Of a DNA stretch of 64,000 nucleotides, positions 8,138 through 60,060 are shown piece by piece (the stretch's first letter is position 1; every line of letters begins with the position of its first letter). The translations under genes were made by a program, and so were the position numbers. This DNA is from Squalus acanthias (Eukaryota). The stretch is taken from positions 434,001 through 498,000 of the forward strand of contig JASTWF010000323.1 of assembly GCA_030390025.1 (NCBI GenBank). The letters run 5' to 3'. The notes beneath the pieces are model-generated. The model had not been told where the DNA came from. It made no database searches and saw nothing but the letters and a program-made list of their open reading frames with translations.

Positions 8138-8233
8138 TGCTCTTGGTGAGGCTCGAACTCACAACCGTCGGCATTTCTCGAGCCTGCATTGTCATATAAG
8201 TACCAGCGCGCTAACCGATTGCGTCACTACAGC
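8138..8233 (-). tRNA. tRNA-Ile(TAT), intron-containing, several substitutions (possibly a pseudogene)
   Basis: GCTGTAGTGACGCAATCGGTTAGCGCGCTGGTACTTATA-intron-ATGCCGACGGTTGTGAGTTCGAGCCTCACCAAGAGCA. Confidence 0.85.
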
Positions 8234-10003: not shown

Positions 10004-11059
10004 TTTTGGAACCGCTGAAATTGAATCTTTCTCCGGCGGATGTTCCAGGTTTACGTATGAAAATGCCCTCGAGGTGCAAATTTGGAGATGCCGTGTAGTG
10101 GGACAAGTTAAAGGATCAGCACAGTTAATGCCGAGAACAAATTAAACAGTAGCTCAAGCTGATGAACCTTACACTGGTGAAAATCCTGGGCGGAGATTTA
10201 GAGGAAACGACACTGGGAGGGGCTGCATTGCGATTCTAACACTTCTCCAAGCACATTCCGGGCAAGCCATCGACCGTAAAAAGAGGGCTTGCAACGGGAA
10301 TGGAACTGCGGGCACACGTGACAGAGCATTGGTATTGGGAATGTAAAACTACTGTCTCCAATACTCTGCTTACCTGAATCAGTCAAAATGCAATGGACAA
10401 TACATGAATAATCCATTTTATTCAACGTGTAATAACCAGTTGATTGGGTCTGTATTCCAGACAGAGTGACACTTTAGTCTAGGGGTATGAATCTCGCTTT
10501 GGGGATTGTAGATTGAAATTTGCGAAAGGTCCCGCATGAGCCCCTTTTTAACGTCGACTTCTGATATTGGACTTGTGCTCTAAACTTGTTCCAATCCGCC
10601 TAATAAATAATCGGTCAGGACACAAATCATTCTCCATCATTCTCCAGCGACTTTGGAGGAAGGTCAATGCAAACTGCCATGTAAATATCATGGCTTTAAT
10701 GACAATAAATTAAAATATTTTTTTAGCAATCACGTTGTAAGTATATTTGGGAGTGTCTATGTTAGATACAAATGTATTTGTGAGTTGTTATTGTGTTAGA
10801 TGTAAATGCTTCTGCACCTCTGTTCGTTATAAATTTATTTAGATTTGTCTATATTATTTATTACTGTATTAGTGTGGGGGAATCTGTGTTAGTTGTAAAT
10901 GTAGCTCTGAGCGCTGCAAATATCCGTCCGGCCCCATTCTACCTTATCATTGCTCCCACGTGGGACTCGGCAGACCATCTGTTAAATTCGGATTCAACTT
11001 TTGCTTTTATTGCTATTTAGAAAATGTGAGGTTTAGAAAGTAATAGCTCTGCACCCATC

Positions 11060-24409: not shown

Positions 24410-26500
24410 TCATGCCTCACGTATACTACGAGGGTTGGAAAGTACATTCTGAGCGTGTAAACGTCATCTGTTTGCCACATTTTGGCCAGTAAATCATTTC
24501 ACCTGCATTACCGGACTGCAGAAGGTCATTTTGCATTTACCACACACGTCCCTTAATCTGCTGTTAAAACCAAATGAGACTAAGGTATGCTTTCAGCGAA
24601 TAAGTAAATGGACACTCGAATTGTTACAGCGCGACCTGGACATTACGCCTAAACGAACCACGCTGTTACCCCTTATGCTCGCCTATGAGGGAAGCCCACA
24701 CCAGTGTCCATTACCAGTGCTAGATATGGAACCAAATCCAATAAAGGCTAACGGCATACCCGGAGCTCGAAATGTGTATGTTGACGGGTCATCATACTAT
24801 GTAGATGGCCATCCTAGAACTGGATAGGCCCTTATTGATATCTACGCTCACGATTGGTCAGAGGGATTTCAAGTTCTCGTCCACTCCTCACAACAGGCAG
24901 AACTGATTGTTGTAATTCTAGCCGTACATTACACGACTATGGATGAAACAAATATCTGGTCCGACAGCAGTTACGTCTGTAACACAGTGATGGCTCTTCC
25001 CCGCTATAATACAAATGAGTTTTGCTCATCAGATGGTAAATCTTCATTACATTCTGGTCTCCTCCGTAAGCTATGGAAAATGCTTCAGGAACGAGTCGCC
25101 CCTTGTCACGTTGGTAATGTAGCAGCCCATCAGAAAGATTCATCTACCCATTCCCGAGGTAACCAAATGGCCAATCGCTTTGCTAAGGAGGCGGCCGAGA
25201 CCGAAATGTTACTACCTTGGTGGGTGATGAATGATACTCAGACGCACGTAGTGGGGACGGTGACTAAGACTAAAGCCATTGATCTTTTGGCCCTACAGGA
25301 TTCATATGCCCCTTATGCACAGGTAATAGCCTGGCATCAACAGGGATGCACGCTACCAGCACCCACCCTATGGGCAGACTCCACTGCAATGCAACAAGGT
25401 GTAGATAAAAACCCTCCCCTACTAATGACGAGGAATAAAGAGGGAGACCTAGTAGTTTGTATTCCTCCTCAGTTAAAGGAAAACATTCCAACTCTGTTTC
25501 ATTCTCACCCGACGGCGGTCCATTACTCAGCGGCCTCTACACTACAAAAGTTATTACCTGTTTGCTGGTGGCCTGGAATGGAACAGTATGTGGAACAATA
25601 TGTTAATTGTTGCTTGCCATGCCTACAGACAAACCTCCCTTCTTGTTCAAATCACGCTTTACTTTGGTCACAGTCGCCTCCTGAGGGACCATTGACACAC
25701 TGACAGATTGACTTTATTGGTGCACTAACAAAATCCAAGGGAAACTATGAGTACGCACTTGTGATAATCGATCAGTTCATTAAATGGATTTAGGCTTTTC
25801 CCCCTGAGTGAGGTGTTCTGTAGATGGGGATTGCCATTACAAGTGGATAGCGATCAGGGTTCACACATTACGGGGACAGTTTTCACAACTCTGCAAGAAA
25901 TGTTACAGATAAAACATAAATTGCACATTGCACACCATCCACAATCATCAGGGATTGTGGAGAGGGGAAATCGAACTTCAATGACAATGTTGCAGAAGTT
26001 GTGTACAGAACACCCCAATCAGTTGGCTGAAATGTTGCCTTTATGTCTAATGGCAATACGCTCGACCCCACACGTGACTAGGAGGGTAAGTCCATATGAT
26101 GCTATTACTGGGAGGCAAATGCGGATACCAGGACATGTAACATTGGGAAACAACACACCATTAAAACTACAACCATGTAGCCAAAAATGGTTAGAAATCT
26201 TGAAAGATAATATGGACAAGGTGAAAAAGCTGGTGGCCATTAACATAGGCAAATCGCGGGAACAAATCAAGCGATATTATGTTAAGAGGGTAAAACCATT
26301 TGAGTATGATGTTGGAGACCGAGTAATGTTACAAAATTTCTCTCGAAAGAAACACTCATTCGAGATAAAATGGACGGGCCCTCATACCATAGTAGATAAA
26401 ATAAATCCGCCTGTGTATCTACTGAATGTCCCATAAGGTCCGAAGGGAGAACCAAAAATAAATGTTTCCATATCAATCAGATGAAAACTGTTAAGAATTA
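24410..26500 (+). pseudogene. pol: pol pseudogene: degenerate RNase H (tether), RNase H, integrase
   Basis: ASRILR..CKRHLFATFW..ISKWTLEL; YVDGSS, SQQAEL, IWSDSSYV, AAH..GNQMANRFAK; H-H-C-C (HSHP..HY..CLPC); IDFIG, DSDQGSH, HPQSSGIVER, KWTGPH; stops and frameshifts. Confidence 0.9.
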
Positions 26501-30998: not shown

Positions 30999-31921
30999 TC
31001 ATCCTTTAATGAATCTTACAATCAGAGTAAAGGGATACTTCCCCACATTCTTCAACTGCTCTCTGAACTTAGTCTGTGTCACGGCATAAATCGCAGTGTT
31101 TGTGCAGCAGCTCAGCAGCTGCAGCATCAATCCCATTTCCAGTACGTAAGTAGGTAGATATACAGCATAATATATGAGATTTTCAGTTGGAGACAACAAA
31201 TAATACATCCGGCTCCATATAGAATTCACCATAAACATTGCCCACAACAGAATGAAATTGCCCGAGATAACAAACAGTAAAATGATGGATTTCCTGCGGC
31301 TCTCCATTTCTGGATCTCTGGGACTCTCCCCACAGCTGGGACCCCGGAGTCTCCTCCGGGCTCTGCTGGCCACTAAAATGTGTCTGACGGTTAAAACATT
31401 GAGCAGCAGGATAAGAACAAATGGGACACACGGGGTGAGAACATAATGAAGGAACTCGATTGCTGCCCAGAACCGTGAAAACATAACATAATATTTTACC
31501 CAGCAAAACCAGGGGGTGTTGGAAAGCCAATACCGATCTCCCAACATAAAATACCAGAAAATATTCTTTAAACAGCTCAGCACAGTCACTGTTCCCAGAA
31601 CCACAGCCGCCGTTTTCTCGGTGCAATATTTTGTTTTCAGCTTCTGGCAACAAATGGCCACAAATCGATCAAAAGTGAAAGTGACAGTGAACCAGACAGA
31701 ACAGTCCGTGGCTGCATAAAGCAGGACGGCGTGGATATTACAAAGGTGGATGGAATGTACGAAATAAAACTGATGCTTATAAACAATCGGAATCTGCCTC
31801 AATATCAGGTCCAGAATAACGACCAGTAGATCCGCCGCCGCCATGGCCACCAGGTAGCGAGTGACACACTTGGAGAGACCGCACTTTCCCCGAGACAGGA
31901 TCACAATCGTCACTAAGTTAA
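30999..31921 (-). CDS. GPR139-like: Class A GPCR, GPR139/GPR142-like, coding exon 2 of 2
   Basis: NL..IVILSR..YLVAMAAADLL..TFDRFVAICC..LLN..NTAIYAVTQTKFR; acceptor TTTCCCTTCCTCGCAG|TTAAC; no stops. Confidence 0.92.
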
Positions 31922-33916
31922 CTGCGAGGAAGGGAAATAAACAGGGAAATTAGACATCAGGCTGGGAGCAAAATCAGCAGTTTGATGGAATTCCGGTTGA
32001 AATCTGCAACTCATTAACGACACTCACTGATATAATCTAATTCTATTACCCGTGGAGCTGAATGCAGGGTTTATTGTAAGAATAATCAGAAATACATCGT
32101 ATTATCAATACATGAGATGGGGATAAATGCAACATTAAAGTAAGAGATGTTTGATTAAGGAGAGATTAAATGATAGATCTAACTTTAGCCCAGCAGACAA
32201 AAGCAACGCCCGGGAGACAGGGACACACAGGACCAGAACCTCTCTGGATGCCTTCGTGTCCCGGGATCAGTCAGCATTTGGAGCGGTGCAATTCGCTTCT
32301 GTGCCCCTGTGTTAGGGAGGGGGAAATGCCGCTCGGATCCCTGCTCCTGGTTAGAAGATGACTTCTATTTAGAACAGAAAATGAATGGAGCAACAAAATA
32401 CAGAAACTGCAACCTTGGCGTGCAATAATAGCAGGCAATTGTATTTAAAATGTACGGATATATTATGCAAGCACTAAGATGACACGTACAAGTGCACTGC
32501 CGTTATAAAGTTAACTGGGCTGTAAGAAGCGTTTTGACAATTGAGTTTTCTACATTTTTGTTGAAATACACAAATTCCAGCTCATTGAAAGAAGATTTTC
32601 AAAATAGCATTGCAAAGAATGAATTCTGAATTAAAATAAGTAGTTATCATTGACCAGATAATGTCCCACTAAATGCATTTATTTGCATCAAAATAAGACG
32701 AATTACCCCAGAGGCAAAGTGCCGCTGAATGCTTTTGTAAAGCATCTGTACACAAGTGGCAGAGATTTATCATAGTACTTTTCCACCTGTTGTTTACCAA
32801 TTTGTGCAGAGAATATTAGATGGGAAAATATGAAAGGATTTTTTTAGCCTCAGTACCTCTGTTACAATCAGCTGGGATTGTTTATCCTGAAGTACAGCAG
32901 AAACAATAGAAAATGAGTCTGGGTGTCACTGAGAGATCCACTGAATTGTGAAAGACAGGCATGGGATCAAATTTTAAATTCCAAACAACGCTGGGAAATA
33001 AATGTGTTGAAATCTGGCTTAATGAACATTTTGTGAGAATGTAAATTGTCCTTGTAATCCTGTTCTAACCATCAGAAGCAGTTCAACTAATACTGAACAG
33101 GAGATGGCGGGAAAGGAGACACTGACTGGAAATGAATGATTAGCGGAAATTTCAGATATTTAGCGATGTGTGTGTATGATCTGACAGGATTTGGTCCTGT
33201 GACTCTGGGCAAGTAACCATACCGAGCATTGGCTGAAAACAAATGCAAAACACTGCGGATGCTGGAAATCTGAAAGTAAAACTGAAAATGCGGGGAATAC
33301 TCAGCAGGCCAGGCAGCATCTGTGGAGCAAGAACAGAGTTAATATGTCAATTCGATGATCTTTCGCCATTGGGTGAAAAGTCTCCTAAACCAAGACAACA
33401 TTCTTCTGATCTGTTACAAATGTTCAGTGGAGGTAGCAGAACGAAATTCGTCAAATAAAGAGTCTCCAACAATATCTTTGCTTGAATTGAATATAGAACA
33501 TTTGAATCTTGGTAACACCGTATCCTGTTCAGAATCAATAGCTGACAGCAGCGCGGATGGGATGGAGAATGCCAAGGAGATAAATACAGTTACACATTAT
33601 TCATAGAAATAATAGCCAGCTGCAGAGACTTAACAGGGACACCAACAGCAGCGAGGGGGTGGCGGAGTAAATGACAAGAACCGTAATACAATGAAACATG
33701 AATTACATAATTAATAGCTTGCTGCAGAGACTGACCAGGGACATCAACAGCAGCGAGGATGTGCCATTAATTTTAAACAACAACCCATGCATTAACAAGG
33801 ATGCAATAACTTGTAACACAGAATAGCATTAATAACAATACACCACGTAAAATAGCAAGAATAATGTTTCAGTGTAACATGGTTAATATAATTAATAACT
33901 GGACATAGATACTTAC

Positions 33917-37925: not shown

Positions 37926-38866
37926 CTAAACACCGCGCAGTTCATTAATTCGAAATATGTTAACCTTTTCTTAAATCCACTCCTTTATATGAGCTGTTGC
38001 CCTGAATTTACTCACAATTCTCCAAACAGCAAGGACTTAGGCGGCACCAGCGGCCGCGTGGCCTAAACCACACTCGATGATTATGGCCTGTGCCCCTGCA
38101 TTGTTCATACCTTGTTAAAATTAAAACAGACCCCTGGAATTCTTCAACTTCTTGAATGAAGGTGGAACAGCGATCGCGAATCGGTGATTGAACATTCCGC
38201 CCCCCCCTCTCTTCGTTCTTCCTGCCACTGAAACTGGCACCGAAATCAAGACTAGCGGGAAAACAAATGATTAGGGAGCAGAAACATAACTTTCTCCTTC
38301 AGGAAGAAATGTAATTGCAAAAATATTTATCAACCTTAATGACGTCATTATCTGTTTTAGTGTCTTTGGTTGAGAGATACATAATAGGCAGTACAATGGG
38401 GAGAAATCCTTGTTCTCCTCGACATCCTCTCATGGGATCTGAGGTCTCGGTTTAACGTCTTATCAGAAAGACAGCACCGCCGACAGTGCAGCACTCCCTC
38501 AGTACTTCACCGGAGTGTCAGCCTGGATTATGTGCTCAAATTTCTGAAGTGTGGCTTGAGTTTGCTACCGCTGAGCCACGGCTGAAACCTAAACACAGTT
38601 CATTCGGCTGGAGTGAAATGACGGAGATAAAGCGAAAAATGATAATGGAGTAAACCTTCAACTTGAAGCCCGAGAATAAATCGCGCATCGCAATCGGCCG
38701 CCCGATTTATGTTGCCATCGATTTCATAAGCAATGATAATCATGCCGTTTCTATAATGGGCGGGGTCGTGGTCAGTTGCGGAACATTCTTTGACTGTTTA
38801 AACCTGGAGTGCTCACAGTCCCAGATCATTCTGTGTGTTAGGTTTTTTAAAGGAGTGCGATTTCAG

Positions 38867-38950
38867 CTGTGATGACCTTTGTTGTTAAGAGTGCTGTGTT
38901 ACGAAGTAGCATTGGGTCTCCCTGCGCTGGTGCGAACCCAGCTCGCAGAG
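38867..38950 (+). pseudogene. tRNA-Ser(CGA)-type relic
   Basis: GCTGTGATGAC..TTAAG..CGAA..ATTGGGTCTCCCTGCGCTGGTGCGAACCCAGCTCGCAG. Confidence 0.6.
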
Positions 38951-39067
38951 GTTATGTTCGTTAATTCGAAATATGTTCATCTTTTCCATAATCCAGTCCT
39001 TTATATGACTTGTTTCCCTGAATCTCCTCACAATTCTCCCCACAACAAGAGGCTGGGTGACAGCAGC

Positions 39068-39156
39068 GGCCCCGTGGCCTAATGGATAAGGCATCTGACA
39101 TCGGTGCTGATTGTTCAGTTATCAGAAGATTGCAGGTTTAAGTTTTGCCGCGGTCG
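39068..39156 (+). tRNA. tRNA-Arg(TCG) with a 16-nt intron at 37/38 (mutated, probably a pseudogene)
   Basis: GGCCCCGTGGCCTAATGGATAAGGCATCTGACATCGG[TGCTGATTGTTCAGTT]ATCAGAAGATTGCAGGTTTAAGTTTTGCCGCGGTCG. Confidence 0.85.
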
Positions 39157-39401
39157 TTCAACTCATTGGGCGACACGTATTCTTCTCTGTTCTGAATCTG
39201 GCTTGAAATCGACCATTTCTGCCAGTACCTCACCTGAAGTAACGGAAGGCCTTTTGCTTAGATGAAGCTGATTGTGCATTTTCACCATTGTAGATCTGTG
39301 TGCACGGGCAAGACAGGCGGTGAAGGGGACATAATTTCACAATATTTCTGCTTAGATGCAAATAGCAGGAAATAGAATGGCTGAGAGCGGTGCAGCTGTA
39401 A

Positions 39402-39474
39402 GATGAGGTGGTCGAGAGGTTAAGCCGATGGACATTGTGCGCTGCACGCATGGGTTCAAATCCCATCTTCAGTG
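39402..39474 (+). pseudogene. tRNA-Ser(GCT) with anticodon loop deleted
   Basis: GATGAGGTGGTCGAGAGGTTAAGCCGATGGAC^ATTGTGCGCTGCACGCATGGGTTCAAATCCCATC. Confidence 0.8.
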
Positions 39475-40370
39475 TTATTGCGTTAAACGTTTGAGGCTGA
39501 TAAACCTTCCGGAGCATTTCAAATGAATTTTATGGAAAACAGACTTTGAATCGTAATCTCGTCAAATCTATTCTGGTGTTTCTGGTTTCTTCAACTTCTT
39601 GAATAAACGAAGAACAGCGATCGCGAATCGGAGATATAACTTTCCCTCCCTCTCTTCCCTGTTCCTTCCTCTGAGTTTGGCACCGAAATCAAGACCAGCG
39701 GGAAAAAAAGATTAGGGAGAATAAACATAACTTTACCGTTTTGGAAGAAAGATAATTTCAAAAATATTTCTCAACCTTAATGAAGAGATTATCTGCTTTA
39801 GTGTCTTTGGTTGAGAGATAAATAATGGACAGTACGATGGGGAGACATACTGTCATGGGATCTGTGGCCTCGGTTTAACGTCTTATCAGAAACATGGCAC
39901 CGCCGACAGTGCAGCACTCCCTCAGTACTGCACCGGAGTGTCAGCCTGGATTATGAGTTCAAGTCTCTGGAGTGGGGCCTAAGTTTGTTAACGCTGAGCC
40001 ACGGCTGACACCTAAATTCTTTTCATTCGGCTGGATTGAAATGACGGAGATAAAGGGAGAAATGATAGTTGAGTAAACCTTCAACTTGGCGCCCACGAAT
40101 AAACCGGGCATCGTAAACGGCCGCTCGATTTATGTTGCCATCGATATCATAAGCAATGATAATCAGGCCGTTTCTGTAATGGGCGGGGTCATGGTCTGTT
40201 GCGGATCACTCTCTTTCTGAAAAAGCGGAGTTCTCACAGTCCGGATCATTCTGTGTCTGTTTAAACCGGGAGTGAACACATTCGCGGATCATACTGTGTA
40301 TTAGTCTTTTTAAAAGTACAGCGATTTCAGCTGCGATGACCTTGTTGTTGATGTTTAATTAAGTGTGGCG

Positions 40371-40461
40371 GGGCTCGTTCGGGTTTTGAACCTAAGATCT
40401 CTTGCAATTTATCAACAGTTAAATTTCCGAAGTGAGAATCATACCGCTTAAACAACGAGCC
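40371..40461 (-). tRNA. tRNA-Pro(CGG) with a 19-nt intron at 37/38 (mutated)
   Basis: GGCTCGTTGTTTAAGCGGTATGATTCTCACTTCGGA[AATTTAACTGTTGATAAAT]TGCAAGAGATCTTAGGTTCAAAACCCGAACGAGCCC. Confidence 0.85.
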
Positions 40462-41138
40462 GCCGATGCTGACATCGACCTTTCCCTCGCCCTCTTCCTT
40501 CCTTTAAGACTGGCCTCGAAATCAAGACTAGCGGGAAATCAAATGATTAGGAAGCTGAAACAAAGCTTTAACCTTTAACAGGAAATGCAATTTCAATAAT
40601 ATTTATCAACCTTAATGACGAGATTAGCTGTTTTACTGTCTTTGGTTGAGGGATAAATAATGGGCAGTACAATGGGGAGAAATCATCGTTCTGTTTAACA
40701 TACTGTCATGTGATCTGAGGTCTCGGTTTAACGTCTCATCAGAAAAACGGCACCGCCGACAGTGCAGCACTCGAATCAGTTTATAAACTGGAGTGAATGT
40801 GTCAGCAACCTGTGGGCAGGCAGCAGAGGCTGAGGCTGTGTCACATGGGAGCAGAAGACCATATGCTTCCCACGGTCCCTTCCCGTGCAAGCGCAGGAGT
40901 TGCTACACCTGCCCTTTTATCTCCTCCCATCCCTGGTACTTTTACTTCTTTCAATTCAGTATACTGTATTCGCTGCACACGATGTGGTCTCCACTAGTTT
41001 GGGGAGACCAAACAGAGATTGGTTGATCGCTTTATGGAATACCTCCATAACATCTGCAAGCGTGACTCTGAGCTTCTGTGCTTGGCCTCCTACACTGCTC
41101 TAATTAAGCTCAACGGAAGCTCGAGAAACAGCACCATG

Positions 41139-44952: not shown

Positions 44953-45027
44953 GGCTCGTTGGTCTAGGTGTATGATTCTCGCTTCGGGGTTGTTATAGTT
45001 GAAATGCGAGAGATCCCGGACGAGCCC
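44953..45027 (+). pseudogene. tRNA-Pro(CGG) with a 16-nt intron; T-arm deleted
   Basis: GGCTCGTTGGTCTAGGTGTATGATTCTCGCTTCGGG[GTTGTTATAGTTGAAA]TGCGAGAGATCCCGGACGAGCCC. Confidence 0.85.
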
Positions 45028-47345: not shown

Positions 47346-50300
47346 GAGTCATAGCGTCATAGAGTTATACAGCACAGAAAGAGGCCCTTCGGCCCATCAT
47401 CTCCGCACCGGCCATCAAGCCCTATCTATTCTAATCCCATTTTCCAGCACTTGGTCCGTAGCCTTGTATGCTATGGCGTTTCAACTGCTCATCTAAAGGC
47501 TTCTTGAATGTTGTGAGGGTTCCTGTCTCTACCACCCTTTCAGGCAGTGAGTTCCAGATTCCAACCAAACTCTGGGTGAAAAAGTTTTTCCTCAAATCCC
47601 CACTAAACCTCCTGCCCCTTACCTTCAAACTATGCCCCCTGGTTATTGACCCCTCTACTAAGGGGAAAAGTTCTTTTCTATCTACCCTATCTGCCCCTCA
47701 TAATTTTGTACACCTTAATCAGTCCCCCCTCAGCCTTCTCTGCTCTAAGGAAAACAACCCTAGCCTGTCCAGTCTCTCTTCATAGCTGAAGCGCTGCAGC
47801 CCAGGTTACATCCTGGTGAATCTCCTCTGCACCCTCTCCAATGCAATCACATCCTTCCTATAGTGTGGCGACCAGAACTGCACACAGTGTTCCAGCTCTG
47901 ACCTAACTTGCGTTTTGTACAGCTTCATCATAACCTCCCTGTTCTTGTCTTTTATGCCTCAGCTAATAAAGACAAGTATCCCATAGGCATTTTTAACCAT
48001 CTTATCTACCTGTCCTGCTGCCTTAAGGGATCTATGTACATGCACACCAAGGTCCCTCTGATCCTCTGTCCTTCCTAGGGTCCTACCATTCATTGTATAT
48101 TTCCTTGCATTGTTAGTCCTCCCAAAATGCATCACCTCACACTTTTCAGGGTTAAAATCCATTTGCCACTGTTATGCCCATCTGACTAACCCGTCTATAT
48201 CGTCCTGTAGCCTGAGGCTTCCCTCCTCGCTATTTACCACCTCACCAATTTTCGTGTCATCTGCGAACTTACTGATCATACCTCCTAAATCCATATCTAA
48301 ATCATTAATGTAAACTACAAACAGCAAAGGACCCAGCACCGATCCCTGCGGTACACCACTGGACACAGGCTTCCAGTCACAAAAACAACCTTCGACCATC
48401 ACCCTCTGCCTCCTGCCACTAAGTCAATTTTGGATCCAATGTGCCAAGTTGCTCTAGATCCCATGCGTTTTTACATTCTTGACCAGTCTCCCATGCGGGA
48501 CTTTGTCAAAAGCCCTACTGAAGTTCATGTAGGTCACATCAACTGCACTACCCACATCCACACATCTAGTCAGCCCCTCGAAAAATTCAATCAGATTGGT
48601 CAGACATGATCTCCCCCTGACAAAGCCATGCTGACTATCCTTGATTAATCCTTGCCTCTCCAAGTGGAACCTAATTCTGTCCCTCAGAATTGTTTCCAAT
48701 AATTTCCCTACCACTGATGTTAGGCTCAGTGGCCTGTAATTCCCTGCTTTATCCCTACTATCCTTCTTGAATAATGGTGCTACGTTATCTGTTCTCCACT
48801 GCACTGGCACCTCCCCTGTGGCCAGAGAGGTTCTGAAAATTTGTGTTAGAGCCCCTGCAGTCTCCTCCCTTGCCTCACACAGCAGCCTGGGATACATCTC
48901 GTTTGGGCCTGGGGATTTATCCACTTTTAAGCCTGCTAAAACCGCTAGTACCTCCTCCCCCTCAATACTAATTTGTACAAGTATATCACCATCCCCCTGC
49001 CTGATTTCTATGCCTACATCGTCCTTCTCCATAGTGAACACAGATGCAAAATATTCATTTAAAACCCCACCTACATCTTCTGGCTCTACACACAGATTGC
49101 CACTTTGGTCCCTAATGGGCCCTACTCTTTCCCTGGTTATCCTCTTGCCCTTACTTTACTTATAAAACACCTTGGGATTTTCATTTATTTTGCCCGCCTG
49201 TGTTATTTCATGCCCCCTCTTCGCTCTCCTAATTTATTTTTTAAGTACCCCCCTGCAGTTTCTATACTCCTCTAGGCCTTCCACTGTTTTTAGTCCTTTG
49301 TATCTGCCAAAAGCCTCCGTTTTTTTTACTAATCCATTCTCGTATGTCCCTTGACATTCAGGCGTCCCTGGGCTTCTTGGTTCTACCCTTGACCTTTACG
49401 GAAACATATTTCCGCTGTACTCTCTCTATTTCCTTTCTGAAAGACTCCCACTGCTCTGATGTGGATTATCCTACAAGTAGCTGATCCCACACCACTTTGG
49501 CCAGATCCTGCCTTATCATATTTAAATCGGCCTTCCCCCAATTTAGAACCTTTATTCCGTTCCATCTTTGTCCTTTTCCATGAATGCCTTAAATCTCACC
49601 GAATTATGGTCACTGTCACCAAAATGCTCTCCTACTAACACTTCTACCACTTGCCCGGCTACATTCCCTAGAATTAGGTCCAATACCGCCCCCTCTCTTG
49701 TAGGACTTTCTACATGCTGGCTCAAAAAGCTCTCCTGGATGCACTTTAAGAAATCCGCACCCTCTAAGCCTTTCACACACTGACTATCCCAGTTAATATT
49801 GGGGAAGTTGAAATCCCCTACTATTATTACCCTACTATTAATCCTACAGTTCTCTGAGATTTGCCTACATATCTGTTCCTCTATGACCCGCTGACTGTTT
49901 GGGGGCCTATAGTTAACTCCCAGCAAAGTGTTTGCCCCCATTTTGTTTTTAAGTTCTACCCATATGGCCTCATTAGAGGAACCTGCTAAGATATCATCCG
50001 TCCTTACAGCAGTAATTGACTCCTTGATTAACATTGCGGAACCCCCATCTCTTTTACACCCTCCTCTGTCTCGGCTGAAGATTCTATACTCCGGAATATT
50101 GAGCTGCCAGTCCTGCACCTCCCTTAATCATGTCTCTGTGATAGCAACCATATCATACTCCCAATTGTTCATCAACAACTTTAATTTATCTGCCTTACTC
50201 GCAAGACTCATTGCATTAAAATAAATGCCATCCAGCCTTGCCATACTCCCTTGTGCCGTTAAATGTTTCCTCTGCCTTCCAGGCTGACTTGTTTTTTCCT

Positions 50301-51610: not shown

Positions 51611-52009
51611 AGAAGTTCGAAATCTGCTTTTTGTTCTTTAAACATATCTTTTGTCAGAGCGCTGACCAGAAATTGCTCAGTATTCTCTCCACTGCTATTT
51701 CGCAAGTTCATAGCACCCGCGTAACCTATTGGAGAAGGCGAAAGATCTTCGATGTCACGCGTAATCTTATCCGAAGATTGCAGGGACGAGTCCGACCGTG
51801 GCTGTTTTACACACTGGGCGACAGCTGTTCCTAAATTTTCCGAGTCTGTCTCACACCCGGACATTCGTCCCCCAGAGTCCTCAGTCTCTCCGGCATCTTT
51901 GCATTCAGTGGCGGGAGCTGCTCTTCCGCTGAAGTTTGCTGACAGAAGCATTGTCTAACATTGTCGAATTCCCATTCCCGCAAAGAACGAAGCCAAACAG
52001 AAGGAGGGA

Positions 52010-52828: not shown

Positions 52829-53525
52829 TAATGGCCCGTATTTTCCGATCGCAGGCTCCCCGCGGGCGGAGGCCTGCGATCTGAAAAAAATCTGACCTGA
52901 GGACTCCCGGGACCCACACGCTTCCGCTACTGGGCCTCTCCAAACTGCAAGTGCGCAGGGCCCACGTATCCCAGAGGCGCATGTCGTTCGCAGCGTCTTT
53001 GGGATGACCTGGGCCATGGGGAACCAATCAAAGAAGGGAATCTCCCTTCATACACTTGAAAGGATGACCTGTCAAATTTATGAATGGAGATCACCCCAAA
53101 AACATAGTAAAACTTTAAATACATGTTTAAACAATCACAGTTTTGAAATGACCTGAAATTACAATAAATTAAGAATTTTAAACAAAAATTAATATTATGA
53201 AAAAAATATTTAAAGTTTTTTGCGGGACTAAAAATAAACTTACCTTTTTTAAAAGTATTTTTAAATGAGAAATCAGTGAAAAACAATTTATTTTTTACTT
53301 TTTTCAACACCTATCCTGGTAAAAGCAGACCTTACGCCTGCTTTTACCAGGCGCAAGAATTGTAAGGGTTTCCTGCGGGCGGAGGGTCTCCAAATAGCGG
53401 AAATATCCGCCTACAGAGACAATTCTCCAGGCGCTGTGCATGCCTGAAACCGGCATTTCCGATGTCCCTACGGGTGGGTACACAGCACCTACACAGCCGT
53501 AGGGATCGGAATATCCGGGCCATTA
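52829..53525. mobile_element. MITE-like TIR element, copy 4
   Basis: TAATGGCCCGTATTTTCCGATC ... GATCGGAATATCCGGGCCATTA; closest to the copy at 9264. Confidence 0.88.
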
Positions 53526-54544
53526 TCCGGGCGAGTGAGAGAACCATGGTTCACAAAAGAGGTTGAATGTCTAGTCAAGAGGAAAAAGGAAGCGTATGTA
53601 AGGATGAGAAAACAAGGTTCAGTTGGGTCGATTGAGGGGTACAAGGTAGCAAGGAATGAGCTAAAAAAAGAGCTTAGGAGAGCTAGGAGGGGGCATGAGA
53701 AGTCCTTGGCGGGTCGGATCAAGAAAAACCCCAAGGCCTTTTACTCTTATGTGAGAAATAAAAGAATGGCCAGGGTGAGGGTAGGGCCGGTCAAGGACAG
53801 TAGTGGGAACTTGTGCATGGAGTCAGAAGAGATAGGAGAGGTGATGAATGAATACTTTTCGTCAGTGTTCACCGAGGAGAGGGGCCATGTTCTTGAGGAT
53901 GAGAGTGTGATAAAGGTGGATAGGCTGGAGGTGGTAGATGTTCTGAGGGAAGATGTTTTAGCAATTTTGAAGAACCTGAGGGTCGATAAGTCCCCTGGGC
54001 CAGATGGGATATATCCTAGGATTCTTTGGGAGGCAAGGGAGGAGATTGCAGAGCCTCTGGCTTTGATCTTTGGGTCCTCACTGTCCACCGGGATGGTGCC
54101 AGAGGACTGGAGAGTGGCGAATGTTGTTCCTCTCTTCAAGAAAGGAAATAGGAATGACCCTGGTAATTATAGGCCGGTTAGTCTTACTTCGGTGGTTGGT
54201 AAGATAATGGAAAAGGTCCTGAGGGATAGGATTTATGACCATTTGGAAAGGGGCAACTTAATCAGGGAAAGTCAACACGGATTCGTGAAGGGTAAGTCTT
54301 GCCTAACAAATTTGATTGAATTCTTTGAGGAGGTAACTAAGTATGTAGATGAAGGTAGAGCAGTTGATGTCGTATACATGGATTTTAGTAAGGCGTTTGA
54401 TAAGGTTCCCCATGGTCGGCTCATGAAGAAAGTAAGGAGTTGTGGGATAGATGAAAATTTGGCCGATTGGATAAGTAACTGGCTATCTCATAGAAATGAG
54501 AAGTCGCACAACACCAGGTTATAGTCCAACAGATTTATTTAATT

Positions 54545-55763: not shown

Positions 55764-57049
55764 GAATGAAACCGATTCTCAGGAGTAGTCCATGGTGAGT
55801 TTGATGGTGGGATGGAACCTATTGATGCTATCGTGTAGTCCTTTCAGTGATCCTTCGCCGTGGGTCCAAAGGAAGAAGATGTCGTCGATGTATCTGGTGT
55901 ACAGCGTTGGTTGGAGGTCCTGTGCAGCGAAGAAGTCTTGCTCGAACTTGTGCATGAAGATGTTGGTATCTCATAGAAGGCAGAGGGTGGTGGTGGATGG
56001 AACATTTTCGGACTGGAGACCAGTTACCAGCGGTGTGCCACAGGGGTCGGTGCTGGGTCCTCTGCTGTTTGTGATTTTTATCAATGACTTGGAGGAGGGG
56101 ACTGAAGGGTGGATCAGTAAATTTGCTGATGACACCAAGATTGGTGGAGCAGTGGATGAGGTGGAGGGCTGTTGTAGGCTGCAAAGAGACATTGATAGGA
56201 TGCAGAGCTGGGCCGAAAAATGGCAGATGGAATTTAACCCTGATAAGTGCGAGGTGATTCATTTTGGTAGGGCAAATTTGAATAAGGATTACAGGGTCAA
56301 CGGCAGGGGTCTGAGGAACGTGGAGGAGCAGAGGGATCTGGGGGTTCATATCCACAGATCTCTGAAGGTTGCCACTCAAGTGGATAGAGCAGTAAAGAAG
56401 GCCTATGGTGTGTTGGCGATAATTAACAGAGGGTTTGAGTTTAAGAACCGTGAGGTTATGCTGCAACTGTACAGGACCTTGGTGAGACCACATTTGGAAT
56501 ATTGTGTGCAGTTCTGGTCACCTCACTATAGGAAGGACGTGGAAGCATTGGAAATAGTGCAAAGGAGATTTACCAGGATGCTTCCTGGTTTGGGGGGGAG
56601 GTCTTATGAGGAAAGATTGAGGGAGTTGGGGCTTTTCTCTTTAGAGCGGAGGAGGATGAGAGGCGACTTAATAGAGGTTTATAAGATGATGAGGGGGATA
56701 GATAGAGTGGATGTTCAGAGACTATTTCCTCGGGTAGAGGCAGCTGTTACAAGGGGGCATAACTATAAGGTGCATGGGGGGAGATATAGAAGGGATGTCC
56801 GAGGTAGATTCTTTACTCAGAGAGTGGTTGGGGTGTGGAATGGTCTGCCTGCTGTGATAGTGGAGTCGGACACTTTAGGAACTTTCAAGCGGTTATTGGA
56901 TAAGCACATGGAGCACACCAGAGTGATAGGGAGTGTGATAGCTTGATCTTGGTCTCGGACAATGCTCGGCACAACATCGAGGGCCGAAGGGCCTGTACTG
57001 TGCTGTACTGTTCTATGTTTCTATGTTTCTATTATGTTATCGGCTCTAT

Positions 57050-59569: not shown

Positions 59570-59699
59570 TGAGATAGAGAGAGAGGAGCGAGAGGGAGAA
59601 GAGCGAGTCAGAGAGAGGAAGGAGGAAAAGGGAGAGACAGAGAGAGATAGAGAGCGAGAGGGACAAAGAGCGAGTCAGAGAGAGGGAATGAGGAAACGG

Positions 59700-59731
<32 letters not shown>

Positions 59732-59953
59732 ACGAGAGGAACAGACCGGGGGAGAGATATAGACATCCTTGTCAACCTATTTAATTGTTATCCCCAGCAG
59801 TTTGTAAAGATGATCAACGGAAGGACTTGTATTTTATGCTTTTCCCGACTTCAGAGCGTCCCAAAGCGCTTTACCGCCAATTGTGTTAGAACTTGATGTT
59901 CCGCCCTGGACTTTGGAAACTACAGCAAATTCGCAACAGATTCTTCCTCTCTT

Positions 59954-59990
<37 letters not shown>

Positions 59991-60060
59991 TTCTCTCTCT
60001 CTATTTCTCTCTCTCCCTCTCTCTCGCTGTCACTGTCTGTTTGTTTCTCTCTCTTTCTCT
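59570..60060. repeat. (GA)n and (CT)n microsatellites
   Basis: 59570-59762 GA-rich; 59940-60060 CT-rich. Confidence 0.85.

Follow-up and report, generated by a model that had tools for sequence, protein, structure and literature searches.

A decayed tRNA-Arg(TCG) gene in Squalus acanthias points to a tandemly amplified tRNA family with putative canonical introns

According to the available parts of two papers that survey GtRNAdb (bioRxiv 10.1101/2025.06.17.660180 and PMC12168002), metazoan tRNA introns are prevalent in the Tyr-GUA, Ile-UAU, Leu-CAA, and Arg-UCU families and essentially absent elsewhere. The initial annotation of the DNA analyzed here stated that the intron-bearing Arg isoacceptor of mammals is TCT, which agrees with the first of these papers (bioRxiv 10.1101/2025.06.17.660180). 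Budding yeast has 10 intron-bearing genes for tRNA-Pro(UGG) (Yoshihisa 2014, PMC4090602), and in yeast an intron-bearing isodecoder family has the intron in all of its genes (Phizicky and Hopper 2023, PMC10275265), both statements being taken from the available portions of these reviews. Heterogeneous tandem tRNA arrays, as far as the accessible text of the source goes, are known from zebrafish, stickleback, and Xenopus (Bermudez-Santana et al. 2010, PMC2888827). No paper describing introns of Arg-TCG or Pro tRNA genes from fishes or sharks emerged from the literature that was searched; Fig. S7 of the supporting information to the second of the two papers (PMC12168002) or public tRNAscan-SE tables may list such introns.

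The DNA studied here is a 64,000-nt stretch of the Squalus acanthias assembly GCA_030390025.1 (contig JASTWF010000323.1, positions 434,001 to 498,000 of the forward strand), referred to below as the window. We consider it likely, judging from sequence, that a tRNA-Arg(TCG)-like element in the window is the dead relic of a tRNA-Arg(UCG) family with a 16- to 18-nt intron at position 37/38, and that the live copies of this family would be transcribed and spliced.

The Arg(TCG) relic and its surroundings in the window

Direct parsing identified a tRNA-Arg(TCG)-like sequence of 89 nt on the + strand of the window (39068–39156). The 5′ exon relic (39068–39104, +; positions 1–37) consists of the acceptor 5′ strand, the D arm, the anticodon stem TCTGA, and the loop C32-A33-T34-C35-G36-G37; compared with intact copies, it carries C5, A26, and A33. 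It is followed, precisely at the 37/38 junction, by the 16-nt intron relic TGCTGATTGTTCAGTT (39105–39120, +), which is homologous to the 16- to 18-nt introns of the array genes described below and has a G at position −3 that is able to pair with C32. The 3′ exon relic (39121–39156, +; positions 38–73) contains A38, the stem TCAGA, the variable loop, the T arm, the acceptor 3′ strand, and G73. The initial annotation had described a 16-nt insert right after G37, an antepenultimate intron G pairable with C32, damage to U33 and to T-loop bases, and a TCG-type body interrupted at the canonical intron position. Parsing reproduces the first three of these features, and the TCG-type body and the canonical position of the insert are likewise supported.

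The copy in the window is a dead pseudogene. U33 is replaced by A33, C5 is mismatched with C68, the T stem contains three G-U pairs, and the T loop reads TTTAAGT vs TTCGAGT in intact paralogs, which breaks the B box and leaves a decayed T arm, so that the cloverleaf is not intact. A type-2 gene of RNA polymerase III is expected to have undamaged A and B boxes and, further downstream, at least four T in a row. In the relic, the B box region is GGTTTAAGTTT and the first T4 occurs only at +96, the original terminator having been lost. The B box, U33, acceptor pairing, and the terminator are gone, and this copy can no longer follow the route of expression and splicing proposed below for the live genes.

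With permissive filters, the Rfam model RF00005 aligned to the relic end to end with a score of 37.2 bits, compared with a gathering cut-off of 29 (E = 1.2e-5 for 2.2 kb scanned and 3.4e-4 for the whole window), and the alignment has a 22-nt stretch in place of six consensus positions. The relic was not listed in an Rfam gathering-mode scan with default filters, and ARAGORN made no call on it, irrespective of whether introns were allowed. As a warning for annotation, default tRNA finders may overlook genes of this kind.

The relic lies within a remnant (37940–40771) of about 2.5 copies of a Pro-Arg-Ser unit of approximately 1.6 kb, which shows 76 to 86% identity to live units, differs from them at about 19% of spacer sites, and has lost the Pro gene of its central unit. 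The unit to which the relic belongs also contains a decayed tRNA-Ser(GCT) (39402–39474, +; Rfam score of 25.6 bits, below the cut-off), which has lost 9 nt of its anticodon arm and whose distance from the Arg gene upstream of it matches that found in live units. In the next unit, a tRNA-Pro(CGG)-like gene (40371–40461, −), also decayed and with an insert after position 37, is 76% identical to the Pro gene of the arrays over 90 nt; together with two further decayed copies on the + strand (44953–45019 and 10474–10534), this makes three Pro relics with inserts in the window. Another Arg(TCG)-like relic, of greater age, lies at 51717–51801 (+); it is 70% identical to the live gene, has an insert of comparable length behind its anticodon, and was not detected by Rfam at E ≤ 5.

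The window holds several other features. A 96-nt sequence that resembles tRNA-Ile(TAT) and has an insert behind the anticodon (8138–8233, −), which scored 25.4 bits with Rfam and thus falls below the cut-off, is probably the Ile(TAT) mentioned in the initial annotation. An open single-exon reading frame of 316 amino acids (30999–31949, −) encodes a rhodopsin-type receptor (Pfam 7tm_1, E = 5.7e-18), the closest Atlas clusters being named GPR139 and belonging mainly to Chordata. Fragments of retroelement reading frames, with Pfam matches to RNase H with an integrase zinc domain and to reverse transcriptase, are located at 24828–25703 (+), 48454–49155 (−), 53448–54524 (+), and 55789–56946 (+). 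Finally, plant microRNA precursor models gave subthreshold matches (28–36 bits, with cut-offs of 64–85) on both strands of a region of about 300 nt (59694–59995), which is probably a long inverted repeat and no microRNA.

Arg(TCG) and Pro genes of the tandem arrays

The genome's own assembly (G000, 3.7 Gb) was searched for homologs using a 151-nt stretch that includes the insert as the query. This search gave 648 first-look candidates, 40 of which were scored, and all 40 matched over the full length of the query, insert included, with E ≤ 8e-31. These matches comprise one 99% twin, two relics at 84 to 86% identity, and a remainder at 81 to 82%; the latter are spaced by approximately 1610–1613 bp on several contigs, and their sequence reads as an undamaged Arg(TCG) gene that is interrupted at 37/38 by 17 nt. 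The twin, which covers the relic and its flanks and lies on another contig (L002, G000:C1703:344942-345092), could represent a duplicated haplotype or stem from a recent duplication of the segment.

We also searched the assembly with an exact anticodon-arm pattern that allowed a gap of 8 to 30 nt at 37/38, using the reversed pattern as control. Arg(TCG) anticodon arms with such an insert were found 369 times (reversed control, 0), and there are exactly two intronless Arg(TCG) genes, both dispersed. The initial annotation had staked its reading on the insert recurring at 37/38 in other Arg-TCG loci, and it does so in these 369, which is a minimum for the number of such genes in the genome. Among the matches listed (100 of 369), insert-bearing Arg(TCG) copies are restricted to one array family, and contigs C1–C25 have none. 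Near-matches to the intronless pattern are, among those listed (100 of 192 hits), mostly intronless Arg(ACG) genes. Such Arg(ACG) genes also form tandem arrays, with a period of about 1235 bp, on contigs C8, C50, C462, and C463 (loci L032–L040), and the existence of these intronless arrays means that tandem amplification in this genome is not tied to introns.

The array unit is approximately 1.61–1.62 kb long and repeated head to tail, with Pro on the opposite strand, Arg(TCG), and Ser(GCT) 240 nt beyond Arg. Rfam scored these genes at 47.0 bits (Pro), 59.7 bits (Arg, above the gathering cut-off), and 64.4 bits (Ser), and ARAGORN called Arg(tcg) with a 17-nt intron. The insert thus lies at 37/38 in the window copy according to parsing and in the array copies according to ARAGORN, and joining the array exons yields a sequence identical to one of the dispersed intronless genes (L041). 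In the array Arg copies the B box reads GGTTCGAGTCC and a T5 run follows at +21, in line with the polymerase III consensus given above. The first T4 lies at +21 for Arg, +31 for Ser, and +56 for Pro. Directly downstream of L041 there is a T5 at +3, and the second intronless Arg gene, which is another isodecoder, has its terminator at about +3; across L041 and nine intronless Pro genes, the first terminator lies at approximately +2 to +6.

The intron variants among the matches listed are TTGCGAATTCTTCAGCT, TTGCGATTCCTTCAGTT, TTGCGAATCCTTCAGTT, TTGCGAATTCTTCAGTT, one of 18 nt, and the 16-nt TGCGAGTCCTTCAGTT. Every live variant seen keeps the anticodon-complementary GCGA and the G at −3, and C32 accompanies G(−3) in each variant seen, including the window copy. 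With anticodon TCG and exons equal to those of the genome's intronless Arg(TCG) gene, these genes fall outside the Arg(UCU) family. Nor does the family follow the yeast type, in which all isodecoder genes have the intron, since there is an intronless gene with an identical product as well as a second intronless isodecoder.

The Ser(GCT) gene of the unit is intronless and the Pro gene has an 18-nt insert at 37/38. Pro genes with inserts of 16 to 22 nt at this position are exemplified by L017:1259–1349 (−) and L007:1803–1892 (+). The Pro anticodon varies by array (AGG, CGG, or TGG) and the exons are otherwise identical. Genome-wide, the pattern search found 528 Pro anticodon arms with an insert vs nine without, and at least 10 insert-bearing Pro loci lie outside arrays and have dissimilar inserts. 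The expanded tRNA-intron repertoire that the initial annotation had proposed for cartilaginous fish is therefore seen in this genome, given 369 Arg(TCG) copies and 528 vs 9 for Pro.

Selection, proposed processing, and alternative explanations

Conservation of the array genes was assessed in five sampled 10-kb array stretches, with array copy L017 as the reference for Arg. All Arg genes in these stretches (31/31) have the exons of L017, which on joining give the sequence of the intronless gene, and hence an intact mature domain; among the Pro genes, 27/30 show no damage. Damaged array copies are L005 (T stem), L008 (1-nt deletion), and L044 (position 2). Copies within an array are non-independent because of concerted evolution, and we compared array types A, B, and C with one representative each. 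Variable sites across the three types amount to 0/73 in the Arg exons, 3/17 in the intron, and 131/788 (16.6%) in the spacers; the chance of finding no exon change at the spacer rate is about 2e-6. The intron diverges at the spacer rate, apart from GCGA and the block whose last base is the G at −3, and the conservation of the exons spans the entire tRNA and is not confined to the two promoter boxes. In the relics, 7 to 12 of 73 exon sites and about 19% of spacer sites differ from live copies, which is the pattern of neutral decay. The invariance of the exons next to a diverged intron and diverged spacers indicates purifying selection on the tRNA product of the array Arg genes.

The following route would account for these features, its splicing steps being modeled on the available text of reviews of eukaryotic tRNA splicing (PMC4090602, PMC10275265). 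RNA polymerase III would transcribe the live array genes from their intact A and B boxes, ending at the T5 run 21 nt downstream, and the pre-tRNA would retain the cloverleaf, with CGA of the intron pairing with the anticodon UCG. C32 would pair with the intron G at −3, so that the 3′ splice site would fall within a 3-nt bulge. The TSEN endonuclease, measuring from the mature domain by its ruler mechanism, would then cut at 37/38 and at the end of the intron, and the RTCB ligase would join the halves into a mature tRNA that is the same as that of the intronless gene. In a ViennaRNA fold of type C in which the cloverleaf was enforced, U33–G36 are paired with the intron. Unconstrained folds favor non-cloverleaf structures by 2 to 4 kcal/mol, and the C32:G(−3) pair appeared in no ViennaRNA fold, free or cloverleaf-enforced.

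Several other explanations deserve consideration, one being that the arrays are a silent, satellite-like amplification in which the insert is disabling rather than a working intron, the cell depending on dispersed intronless genes. Intronless genes do exist in the genome, two for Arg(TCG), both intact, and nine for Pro, each with a terminator of at least four T within a few bases, whereas the first T4 of the array genes comes only at +21 to +56; in addition, 369 and 528 copies far outnumber what a cell would seem to require, and two intronless genes might in principle be enough. A silent array would, however, hardly be expected to keep all 73 exon sites invariant while spacers vary at 16.6% of sites and the intron at 3/17, or to conserve a region that comprises the whole tRNA and not the A and B boxes alone. 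Unselected copies decay, as the relics show (7–12/73), and the live intron retains both features expected of a TSEN substrate, that is, the anticodon-complementary GCGA and the G at −3. We therefore regard silent arrays as unlikely, although this is the alternative that we take most seriously. The idea that the element in the window is a private accident, meaning a random 16-nt insertion into a single pseudogene, or else a tRNA-derived SINE, has in its favor that the window copy is clearly a pseudogene and that the window contains retroelement reading frames. We give it hardly any weight: hundreds of paralogs share the insert and its position and have homologous flanks, and the head-to-tail units of 1.6 kb, with three different tRNA genes on both strands, have no poly-A or SINE body.

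A separate issue is the origin of the Arg(TCG) intron, which could be ancestral, as the initial annotation had suggested for the repertoire, retained here and lost in mammals, or could have been gained within the lineage. The intron is already present in relics that are about 19% diverged (in the window, L003, and L004) and about 30% diverged (window positions 51717–51801), which makes it an old feature of this genome; the dissimilar intron sequences of dispersed Pro loci likewise suggest age for the Pro family. Against retention from a vertebrate ancestor stand the confinement of intron-bearing Arg(TCG) copies, among the matches listed, to one unit family with none on contigs C1–C25, the absence of an intron from both dispersed Arg(TCG) genes, and the distribution of metazoan introns, which the available parts of the two papers cited above restrict, in essence, to the Tyr-GUA, Ile-UAU, Leu-CAA, and Arg-UCU families (bioRxiv 10.1101/2025.06.17.660180 and PMC12168002). 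Ancestral retention therefore seems rather improbable, and the confinement to one array family together with the intronless dispersed genes suggests a derived gain in the ancestor of the array family, followed by amplification.

Two candidate sources of the intron sequence were considered and set aside. The intron motif CTTCAG resembles the loop sequence CTTCGG, as if the anticodon loop had been duplicated; this match is too short. A truncated Arg-like fragment lies upstream of the relic Arg gene in two loci (L003:1179–1240 and L004:1179–1221), and the intron of the array Pro gene shares an 11-nt identity with the anticodon region of this fragment in L003, which may be a coincidence or a trace of exchange between genes. 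As evidence of origin, this identity was rejected because it is short and because dispersed Pro introns appear to be divergent forms of a separate Pro intron.

Comparison with known systems

Taken as a whole, the family to which the window relic points is real and, for an animal, unusual, though of a known kind, and splicing is the predicted route to its mature tRNA. The broader proposition, that most copies of tRNA-Arg(UCG) and of tRNA-Pro of all three isoacceptors have canonical introns, are under selection, and are spliced, is one that we favor by a modest degree. If it is true, intron gain and amplification to hundreds of copies would have taken place in two tRNA families that lie outside the four metazoan families with known introns. 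This would be a natural example, open to dating, of a tRNA intron being gained in an animal, in which an identical mature tRNA is encoded both by genes that have the intron and by genes that lack it. Array types of different ages, along with the relics, would make intron gain, its cost or benefit, and intron-dependent modification directly testable, which bears on how, or whether, animals acquire new tRNA introns.

The inserts of this family resemble canonical animal introns spliced by TSEN and RTCB in being located at 37/38, in being short (16–18 nt), and in having an anticodon-complementary segment and a −3 base that can pair with position 32, the mature domain of the array genes being an ordinary cloverleaf. 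They differ from known animal introns in that the isoacceptor is Arg(UCG), which the accessible text of the two papers groups with essentially intronless tRNAs (bioRxiv 10.1101/2025.06.17.660180 and PMC12168002), and in that the same mature Arg(UCG) would be derived from coexisting intron-bearing and intronless genes, with splicing predicted here. The array Pro genes, with their 18-nt insert at 37/38, resemble yeast Pro(UGG). Unlike in yeast, AGG, CGG, and TGG genes all carry an insert, the genome is that of an animal, and nine intronless genes exist alongside; the likeness is one of position, and we claim no homology. The organization of the locus is similar to that of the zebrafish, stickleback, and Xenopus arrays, with head-to-tail units on the kilobase scale, several tRNA genes per unit, and hundreds of copies. 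The tandem tRNA unit of Xenopus measures 3.18 kb. The available text on the fish and Xenopus arrays (PMC2888827) does not mention introns, and in the unit described here two of the three genes, from families that are normally intronless, have putative introns.
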